Below, piece after piece: positions 6,919 through 7,420 of a stretch of 14,905 nt of DNA; the first letter of the stretch is position 1; every line of letters begins with the position of its first letter. Source of the stretch: a virus (lineage: Duplodnaviria > Heunggongvirae > Uroviricota > Caudoviricetes); the IMG/VR virus record IMGVR_UViG_641522650_000010. One strand, written 5' to 3'. The translations under genes were made by a program, and so were the position numbers. The notes under the pieces are model-generated. The model was given only the letters and a program-made list of their open reading frames with translations, had not been told where the DNA came from and made no database searches.

Positions 6919-7112
6919 GAATCCTCCCGGCCTGGATAATATTGTGAGTAAAATGAGGAGCGGGCTGAAGTCCGGAAGTTACAGGACAATGGCAGAAGAT
7001 AGACAACAGCCCGCAATATGAAAAAGGCCGCGCTATTGCGCAGAGTGATTACTGTCGGATATTATTCGCCAGCTGAAATATTACTTCACGTTTTGTTGTT
7101 TATTCCTTGCCG

Positions 7113-7140
7113 CCCGCGTCTCCCAGCGCGGGATTTTTTT
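7113..7140 (+). terminator. Plus-strand rho-independent terminator-like element
   Basis: Stem cccgcg (7113-7118) / cgcggg (7127-7132) with an 8-nt loop, followed by a T7 run (7134-7140); upstream flank is not T-rich on the other strand. Confidence 0.4.
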
Positions 7141-7381
7141 GTCCATAAGAAAGCCCCTCCGGAGAGGGGCTGGAGAGTGGCGCTATGTGCCATTGCATGG
7201 TGCCGGGTGCCTCCCGGTGAGTTCAGTATCAGCACCTGAACCCGCACAGAAAGGATAAGGGTCGGGACAAAACACCAGTTGCTGATTGCCCCTCCGCACA
7301 GGGGGATTCACCATGCCAGTTTCTTTTTACAAACTCCCCGCAAACCAGACAACAGTCAACCGCCTGAATTGTGAGACATTT

Positions 7382-7405
7382 AAAAAAAAGCCCGCAAAAG
7401 CGAGC
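7382..7405 (-). terminator. Rho-independent terminator about 15 nt downstream of the tRNA cluster
   Basis: Minus-strand reading gctcgc-tttt-gcgggc followed by eight U (plus-strand A-run 7382-7389). Confidence 0.5.
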
Positions 7406-7420
7406 CAGGGAAAATAAGTG

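Follow-up and report, generated by a model that had tools for sequence, protein, structure and literature searches.

When Hfq-bound RNAs of O157 Sakai were mapped, the moron insertion site downstream of PR′ was found to harbour convergent sRNA genes (Tree et al. 2014, PMC4104026). In Sp5, for example, EcOnc27 and EcOnc02 (AsxR) lie 3′ of stx2B, and the same organisation recurs in Sp3, 4, 9, 10, 11, 15 and 17 (PMC4104026); a 2021 review speaks of "dyads" and places these pairs of Hfq-binding sRNAs in no fewer than eight Sakai prophages. The Sakai homologues of STnc100 were detected by Northern blot and Hfq-CRAC (Tree et al. 2014, PMC4104026), with sizes of approximately 222 nt for EcOnc05 (Sp4) and 235/247 nt for EcOnc27 (Sp5) (Table S2 of that study), and the 247-nt form of EcOnc27 was destabilised in an hfq deletion strain (Tree et al. 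2014). EcOnc27 is the RNA annotated as STnc100 by Infernal downstream of stx2B (PMC12711010, PMC12370729), and a statistical link has been reported between STnc100/EcOnc27 variants downstream of stx2 and the risk of HUS (PMC12711010). Overexpression of sRNA103 alters the levels of the fimZ and espA transcripts. STnc100 is related to the EPEC sRNAs PasD1 and PasD2 (Zhu, Shabalina and Storz, bioRxiv 2026). EcOnc08/EcOnc21 (Sp4) and EcOnc42 (Sp15), on the strand opposite the late genes, measure about 271 nt by Northern blot and are bound by Hfq (Tree et al. 2014); a terminator is found within 200 nt of the EcOnc42 peak (Tree et al. 2014, Table S2), and EcOnc42 has been said to "bookend" stx1AB on the 3′ side (Sy et al. 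2020). Finally AsxR and AgvB, at the same position, are anti-sRNAs with proven targets (Tree et al. 2014), and these sister RNAs rewire host iron and amino-acid uptake.

The DNA analysed here (hereafter, the window) is a 14,905-nt stretch of a caudoviral record in IMG/VR (IMGVR_UViG_641522650_000010). Its late region occupies the minus strand, in the order Q, methylase, three tRNAs, gap and nanS-p-like esterase. Pfam identifies the Q antiterminator at 9333-9728 (Phage_antitermQ, E 1.6e-52), an N6/N4 DNA methylase at 7720-8769 and the esterase at 4957-6918 (DUF1737, SASA and DUF6645). The tRNA cluster (7421-7670, ARAGORN and Rfam tRNA matches) consists of tRNA Met(CAT) at 7595-7670, annotated ileZ in the homologous Sakai prophage clusters, tRNA Arg(TCG) at 7512-7588, corresponding to argN, and tRNA Arg(TCT) at 7421-7497, corresponding to argO. 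Matching tRNA genes are annotated in Sakai Sp4 and Sp5, and the cluster, which is 90% identical to that of VT2-Sakai, forms the upstream border of the region of interest. The order Q, tRNAs, esterase on which the original prediction was built is thus the one that Pfam and ARAGORN find on the minus strand. That prediction went on to describe the interval between the tRNAs and the esterase (6919-7420) as an empty toxin slot full of hairpins. Our analysis leads to a different reading: with a probability that we put at roughly 0.85, the interval is a fully occupied regulatory module of lambdoid prophages, a convergent sRNA dyad located at the moron site that follows the Q-dependent late promoter. 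At the level of sequence, the identification of both RNAs is firm.

The minus-strand member is an STnc100-family sRNA gene, related to EcOnc05, EcOnc27/sRNA103 and PasD. A cmscan search matched RF02076 (STnc100) to positions 7141-7345 of the minus strand with 139.5 bits (E 2.5e-32; gathering threshold, 47 bits), covering model positions 1-206 of 206; with a 5′ end predicted near 7371 (see below), the gene would span 7141-7371. The match includes a long-range closing helix (7309-7316 with 7195-7202), a 5′ hairpin (7289-7305), two internal hairpins (7219-7243 and 7203-7217) and, at the 3′ end, the gene's own Rho-independent terminator, an 8-bp stem at 7152-7171 followed by UUUCUUAU (UUUCUU in RNA). 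It accounts for three of the hairpins noticed earlier. The hairpin placed at 7289-7306 is present as CCCCC...GGGG at 7289-7305, and the 8-bp-stem hairpin at 7152-7171 is equally real and reads as a minus-strand terminator. A further structure, put at 7213-7229, does exist but lies about 10 nt from that position and is made of two elements, CCGGG-AGGCA-CCCGG at 7203-7217 and GGGTTCAG/CTGAACTC at 7219-7243. Since the full-length STnc100 match covers them, these additional GC hairpins are helices of a catalogued sRNA.

STnc100 occupies the same position in VT2-Sakai/Sp5 (207.7 bits), VT1-Sakai/Sp15 (176.7 bits) and Sakai Sp4 (138 bits), as well as in phage PhiR5_1 and in a 99%-identical E. coli chromosome. 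The window sRNA shares the full-length model match, the helices and the terminator with EcOnc27/sRNA103 (Sp5), EcOnc05 (Sp4), EcOnc06 (Sp17) and EcOnc04 (Sp11); like the Sakai RNAs, it lies on the late strand, downstream of Q and cargo and directly upstream of the sialate esterase gene. The probe published for EcOnc05 maps inside the Sp4 STnc100 match, which identifies EcOnc05 (~222 nt) as the Sp4 homologue. The central variable arm represents a different allele from those of Sp4, Sp5 and Sp15, and is 96% identical to the PhiR5_1/PhiR12 allele. To compare structures, 73 unique variants were gathered from IMG/VR and GTDB genomes, and 43 of these were aligned for RNAalifold. The conserved helices were recovered, the closing helix, the 5′ hairpin and the CCGGG hairpin being essentially invariant, while helix 7219-7243 shows compensatory double changes at three pairs (in 12, 8 and 2 of the 43 sequences). 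Folding of the single sequence gave an unremarkable MFE z-score for the STnc100 region (-1.69); such z-scores being weak and uninformative alone, the case is built on the covariance model and the comparative data.

The left edge of the module also suggests how the RNA might be transcribed. Among 31 different upstream contexts, most carry a -10-like TTAAAT or TGTAAT at a fixed distance from CACAATTCAG, with a few variant hexamers. In the window, the conserved TTAAAT falls on the minus strand within the 7378-7383 junction described below. A start approximately 7 nt past this hexamer, near 7371, from a promoter with a weak consensus match, would yield sizes compatible with the Northern bands of ~222 nt (Sp4) and ~235 nt (Sp5). 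The 3′ end would lie just past the AGCCCCTC...GAGGGGCT hairpin, for a predicted length of about 230 nt, compatible with the 222-247 nt range published for the Sakai STnc100 RNAs.

The plus-strand terminator noted in the original prediction, which surmised that it might mark a small antisense RNA, is present at 7113-7140 (stem 7113-7132 followed by T7; RNAfold -13.4 kcal/mol) and the surmise was well founded. The published Northern probe for EcOnc08/21/42 matches positions 7032-7066 on the minus strand of the window at 35/35 bases, with no mismatch (0 matches in 200 shuffles); matching the minus strand, the probe detects a plus-strand RNA. In addition, window 6919-7224 is 97% identical to Sp15, and window, Sp4 and Sp15 are collinear here. 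The Sakai CRAC peaks (Tree et al. 2014, Table S2) can be mapped onto the window, EcOnc08 at about 7066-7138 and EcOnc21/42 at about 6975-7060, using a coordinate offset between genome versions that was deduced from the AsxR and Rfam matches (~135 at Sp5/Sp15, ~0 at Sp4). With the same probe site, strand, terminator and convergence with an STnc100-type sRNA, the window differs essentially not at all from EcOnc08/21/42 in sequence, and on these grounds the terminator at 7113-7140 is the 3′ end of an EcOnc08/21/42 homologue. This terminator abuts the STnc100 3′ end (7141-7151), the two terminators standing back to back. If as long as its Sakai counterpart (~271 nt), the RNA would extend from approximately 6870 to 7140 and, in antisense, would cover the 5′ UTR, the Shine-Dalgarno sequence and the first ~16 codons of nanS-p. 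A scan for sigma-70 promoters found no convincing candidate for the 271-nt form near 6870; the sole hit, at 6912-6940, would give an RNA of about 194 nt.

Inspection of the same strand points to a second, shorter transcript. A plus-strand promoter can be recognised with a -35 TTGCGC at 7036-7041, an 18-bp spacer and a -10 TATTAT at 7060-7065. The -35 element resides in the complement of a conserved minus-strand GC hairpin followed by U5 (7028-7043) that precedes the nanS-p leader, found by the terminator scan and overlooked in the original prediction, which is kept in 5/5 aligned loci, Sp5 included, and in most of the aligned variants of the plus-strand element. In an alignment of 14 sequences (13 diverged variants plus AsxR), the 18-bp spacing is kept throughout and the TTGC of the -35 is invariant; the -10 is TATTAT in the 13 variants versus TAAAAT in AsxR. 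Placing the start six bases past the -10 reproduces the published 54-nt AsxR exactly, and the same rule yields a 70-nt RNA in the window. We therefore predict an sRNA of about 70 nt (7071-7140), nested in the 3′ end of the 271-nt RNA and coinciding with the EcOnc08 Hfq-CRAC peak. The published EcOnc08/21/42 probe falls upstream of the predicted start and thus outside the short form. The candidate carries a conserved CUUCACGUUUU / UAUUCCUUGCC core; its MFE z-score (-1.63) is unremarkable. Its terminator stem is kept with differing sequences in diverged variants: ACCGCTC/GAGCGGT in L064 and L117, GCCCGC/GCGGGC in L084 and, as read directly from the sequence, GCCCG/CGGGC in L062.

Comparison with AsxR and AgvB places the predicted RNA in a known slot. 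In Sp5, Rfam puts AsxR (88 bits) on the opposite strand, one base past the end of STnc100. The window element shares with AsxR/AgvB this slot and its orientation, running towards the 3′ end of an STnc100-type sRNA, together with a homologous promoter (-35 TTGCGC in the conserved hairpin, 18-bp spacer, TAnnAT -10) and a terminator followed by a U-run. Unlike AsxR and AgvB, which measure 51-60 nt, the window RNA is predicted to be 70 nt long, and the transcribed body is unrelated. Within window 6500-8000 neither AsxR (RF02703) nor AgvB (RF02702) gave a match at E<=1; no alignment of the bodies is obtained, the ~42-nt 3′ region conserved in the anti-sRNA class is missing, and an assignment of the plus-strand body to AsxR/AgvB was rejected. 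The partner opposite STnc100 is of the window type in 36 cases, of the AsxR/AgvB type in 17 and of another type in 82. These data raise the possibility, which we put forward tentatively and at somewhat less than even odds, that the slot is a promoter-anchored exchange site in which one conserved promoter drives interchangeable short bodies: AsxR/AgvB in Sp5, Sp10 and Sp17 and, in the window, Sp4, Sp15 and ~18% of complete E. coli genomes, a putative ~70-nt sRNA that would constitute a second Hfq class with its own regulon.

How the module might work can be outlined by extension of the literature on the near-identical Sakai loci, from which transcription, RNA sizes and Hfq binding are taken over; the start sites, the 70-nt RNA and the way in which the RNAs act are our own predictions. 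The minus strand would encode an Hfq-binding STnc100-family sRNA of about 230 nt, with an apparent weak promoter of its own at the left edge of the module and its own terminator (7152-7171), and the plus strand its partner EcOnc08/21/42, ending at the 7113-7140 terminator. In a lysogen, both RNAs would be made independently of Q and transcribed toward each other, the back-to-back position of the terminators making for two transcripts without overlap. By analogy with AsxR, AgvB, PasD and sRNA103, both most likely regulate host or prophage mRNAs in trans through Hfq; the long plus-strand form may also repress nanS-p in cis. Under Q-dependent antitermination, late transcription would continue across the entire module and thereby add the STnc100 sequence to the nanS-p leader. 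The proximal portion of this leader (6919-7027, minus strand), with a Shine-Dalgarno GGAGG at about 6925-6929 and the ATG at 6916-6918 as read from the sequence, is approximately 90% identical to that of Sp5 and nearly invariant across a five-locus alignment.

The relationship to the toxin locus was examined by aligning the window with the stx-flanking regions of Stx phages, the comparison in which the original prediction hoped to find deletion scars. The locus does occupy the position of stxAB, as it had claimed. Pairwise BLAST aligns window 7749-7383 with the tRNAs and terminator of VT2-Sakai (record L003, 6083-6450, 90%). The Rho-independent terminator 3′ of the tRNA cluster, previously put at 7382-7405, was recovered by the terminator scan at 7379-7406 (minus strand; stem 7389-7406 followed by a U-run) and is homologous to the "possible rho-independent terminator" of VT2-Sakai (L003 6427-6450). 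Homology ends at window 7383 (L003 6450) and picks up again at 7378 (L003 7786); from there, window 7378-7194 and 7043-6811 align to the stx2B-to-nanS-p interval. The junction at 7378-7383 is equivalent to the stx insertion point and marks the left edge of the conserved sRNA module, the 1335-bp stx2 cassette corresponding to about 4 bp of the window (7379-7382). In VT2-Sakai the stx2 cassette has the sequence ATCTG on either side, a repeat too short to interpret. The order Q, tRNAs, terminator, sRNA dyad, nanS-p is shared with the Stx phages (933W/Sp5, H-19B/Sp15), with homologous flanks; the window differs from their stx locus in being without stxAB or a remnant of it, and in that its Q gene and tRNAs are separated by the N6/N4 methylase and a 96-aa ORF.

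The spacing is 486 bp from stx2B to nanS-p, 510 bp from stx1B to nanS-p and 502 bp from the last tRNA to nanS-p in the window, and the module is collinear with both toxin-proximal intervals. Since Stx phages keep the same ~490-510 bp between stxB and nanS-p, the interval is not a toxin slot: the module consistently lies beside the cargo site and is distinct from it, and stx, when present, inserts immediately upstream. One could still see in the hairpins and the orphan plus-strand terminator the debris left behind when stxAB or other cargo was lost, as the original prediction envisaged for the terminator; the stx position of the locus and the homology of both flanks to Stx-phage sequence fit such a history, and repeated loss of stx is among the possibilities that Zhu et al. 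consider for related loci. We consider this very improbable. Phages with stx1 or stx2 still in place contain all of the ~490 bp in collinear order, the ~4-bp junction is clean, and BLASTN/TBLASTN searches of the window with stx cassettes and proteins gave nothing better than E 0.6. Moreover, in a survey of the 105 STnc100 loci with enough upstream sequence, the tRNA terminator directly precedes the module, as in the window, in 20, stx2 in 6, stx1 in 1 and other cargo in 78, making the stx-less arrangement about three times commoner than stx (20 versus 7). A past loss of stx by precise excision is possible, yet would leave the hairpins unexplained. Still less probable, to the point of being negligible, is that the interval encodes one or more small proteins. 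Mechanical ORFs do occur (7018-7239, plus strand, 73 aa; 7086-7247, minus strand, 53 aa) and several genome records annotate a "hypothetical protein" beneath the match, one such call bearing a pseudogene flag in RefSeq. Comparison of frames across the 73 unique variants, however, found no conserved ORF in the interval, in line with the earlier statement that it contains no plausible one: reading frames vary, the sole recurrent ATG-initiated frame stops after 11 to 44 codons depending on the variant, 10, 46 and 14 variants have the conserved 3′ core in frame 0, 1 and 2, respectively, and the lengths of indels in the variable arm are not divisible by three. The short recurrent frame and the occurrence of the 3′ core in all three frames indicate that the element is non-coding, and the small-ORF reading was rejected.

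Two further interpretations accept the transcripts and question what they do. The abundance of terminators could mean that the locus serves for punctuation only, the back-to-back terminators insulating the tRNA cluster and the late operon from antisense transcription and the RNAs being functionless by-products. Indeed, three or four terminator-like hairpins lie within 400 bp (the scan found 5 such sites in 1.2 kb, versus 1.4 +/- 1.6 in shuffled sequence), StxS indicates that terminated by-products do arise in this region, and the 2021 review calls the rationale of the dyads unclear. We regard this interpretation as unlikely: the STnc100 body has a conserved multi-helix architecture, with covariation, that goes well beyond a terminator; the Sakai homologues bind Hfq, and the longer form of EcOnc27 depends on it for stability; overexpression of sRNA103 shifts the amounts of the fimZ and espA transcripts; targets have been proven for the sister RNAs AsxR and AgvB, which occupy the same position; and the PasD relatives have many RIL-seq partners. 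Alternatively, the plus-strand RNA might be mainly a cis-antisense repressor of nanS-p translation or stability, not a trans-acting sRNA. An RNA of 271 nt with its 3′ end at 7140 would be complementary throughout to the leader, the Shine-Dalgarno sequence and the first ~16 codons of nanS-p, and in the loci examined the element is found together with nanS-p-type esterase genes. That this is its main role seems doubtful, though less so than the punctuation hypothesis, considering that EcOnc08/21/42 binds Hfq at two sites in Sakai and that the nested promoter common to the trans-acting AsxR and AgvB is conserved. A cis-antisense activity would in any case be compatible with the sRNA dyad and is no alternative to the identification of the two RNAs.

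The dyad as such is already known (Tree et al. 2014; Rfam RF02076); new here are only the predicted nested ~70-nt sRNA and the view of AsxR/AgvB as alternative bodies behind one conserved promoter. The practical value for the window lies in a correct annotation and in one testable prediction, the ~70-nt plus-strand sRNA. More broadly, the DNA beside the Shiga-toxin insertion site is a conserved regulatory RNA gene pair and not spare space. Some part of the 502-bp interval matches 2910/5426 complete E. coli genomes; the plus-strand element is found in 992/5426 of these, and in 58 phage records that include Stx1, Stx2a and Stx2d phages. Genome records leave this partner unannotated or label it "hypothetical protein".

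For the AsxR/AgvB trait of a 5′ region that imitates an mRNA target and so sponges a core sRNA, the predicted 70-nt RNA was compared with Spot 42. It shares an 11-nt same-sense identity, UUACUUCACGU, with nt 40-50 of Spot 42, which recurred in 2/2000 shuffles, the comparison having been chosen post hoc. Mimicry of Spot 42 was dropped as an explanation: the nanC and nanT leaders complement the 5′ end of Spot 42 and not the shared 11-mer, and duplexes of the candidate with these two leaders showed no energetic advantage over those with shuffled targets (48/300 and 40/300). A GcvB-like GU-rich stretch, GUUUUGUUGUUUAUU, is present as well.

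The STnc100 core, whose family (Rfam RF02076) is matched on the minus strand of the window at 7141-7345, recurs well outside this locus. It is present beyond Escherichia and Shigella, in Enterobacter and Leclercia loci (L008, L011 and L014), indicating that the sRNA module is not confined to E. coli prophages; in these loci, the partner region downstream of the core differs. The 24-nt core is also matched exactly in an 888-bp contig assigned to Xanthomonas pisi DSM 18956 (L016), a match that likely reflects contaminating enterobacterial DNA. Some IMG/VR prophage contigs (L025, L032, L039, L052, L095 and L080) carry a tandem pair of STnc100 cores, which amounts to sRNA modules in duplicate. 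The distance between the cores is 484 nt (positions 3234 and 3718 in L025, 924 and 1408 in L032), as opposed to 275 nt in L080 (1487 and 1762).

The closest genomic match to the 502-bp interval (99.2%) was found in E. coli SCPM-O-B-9504 (L004). There (8505-9623), a single short tRNA-Met is followed by an IS5-like ISKpn26 element, and annotation of the two Arg tRNAs is lacking. The sRNA module is intact.

The predicted plus-strand sRNA shares an 11-nt identity (UUACUUCACGU, window 7081-7091, plus strand) with nucleotides 40-50 of Spot 42; the shared stretch lies in the element's best-conserved block. A search for nanC or nanT as targets common to the two RNAs yielded no support for either.

The nanS-p-like esterase gene (4957-6918) contains an in-frame TAA at 6685-6687 (minus strand), replacing a Tyr of the Sp15 homologue ECs_2972 (EY*FVV in the window versus GYYFVV). 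As a result, the gene, probably a pseudogene, is split into ORFs of 77 and 564 amino acids. Between the Q and methylase genes, an ORF of 96 aa (8920-9210, minus strand) gave no Pfam match. Directly downstream of the esterase gene lies an IS3-family insertion sequence (3507-4780, minus strand; HTH_Tnp_1, then rve integrase core), at the place that PasA-type sRNAs and the holin gene occupy in other prophages.
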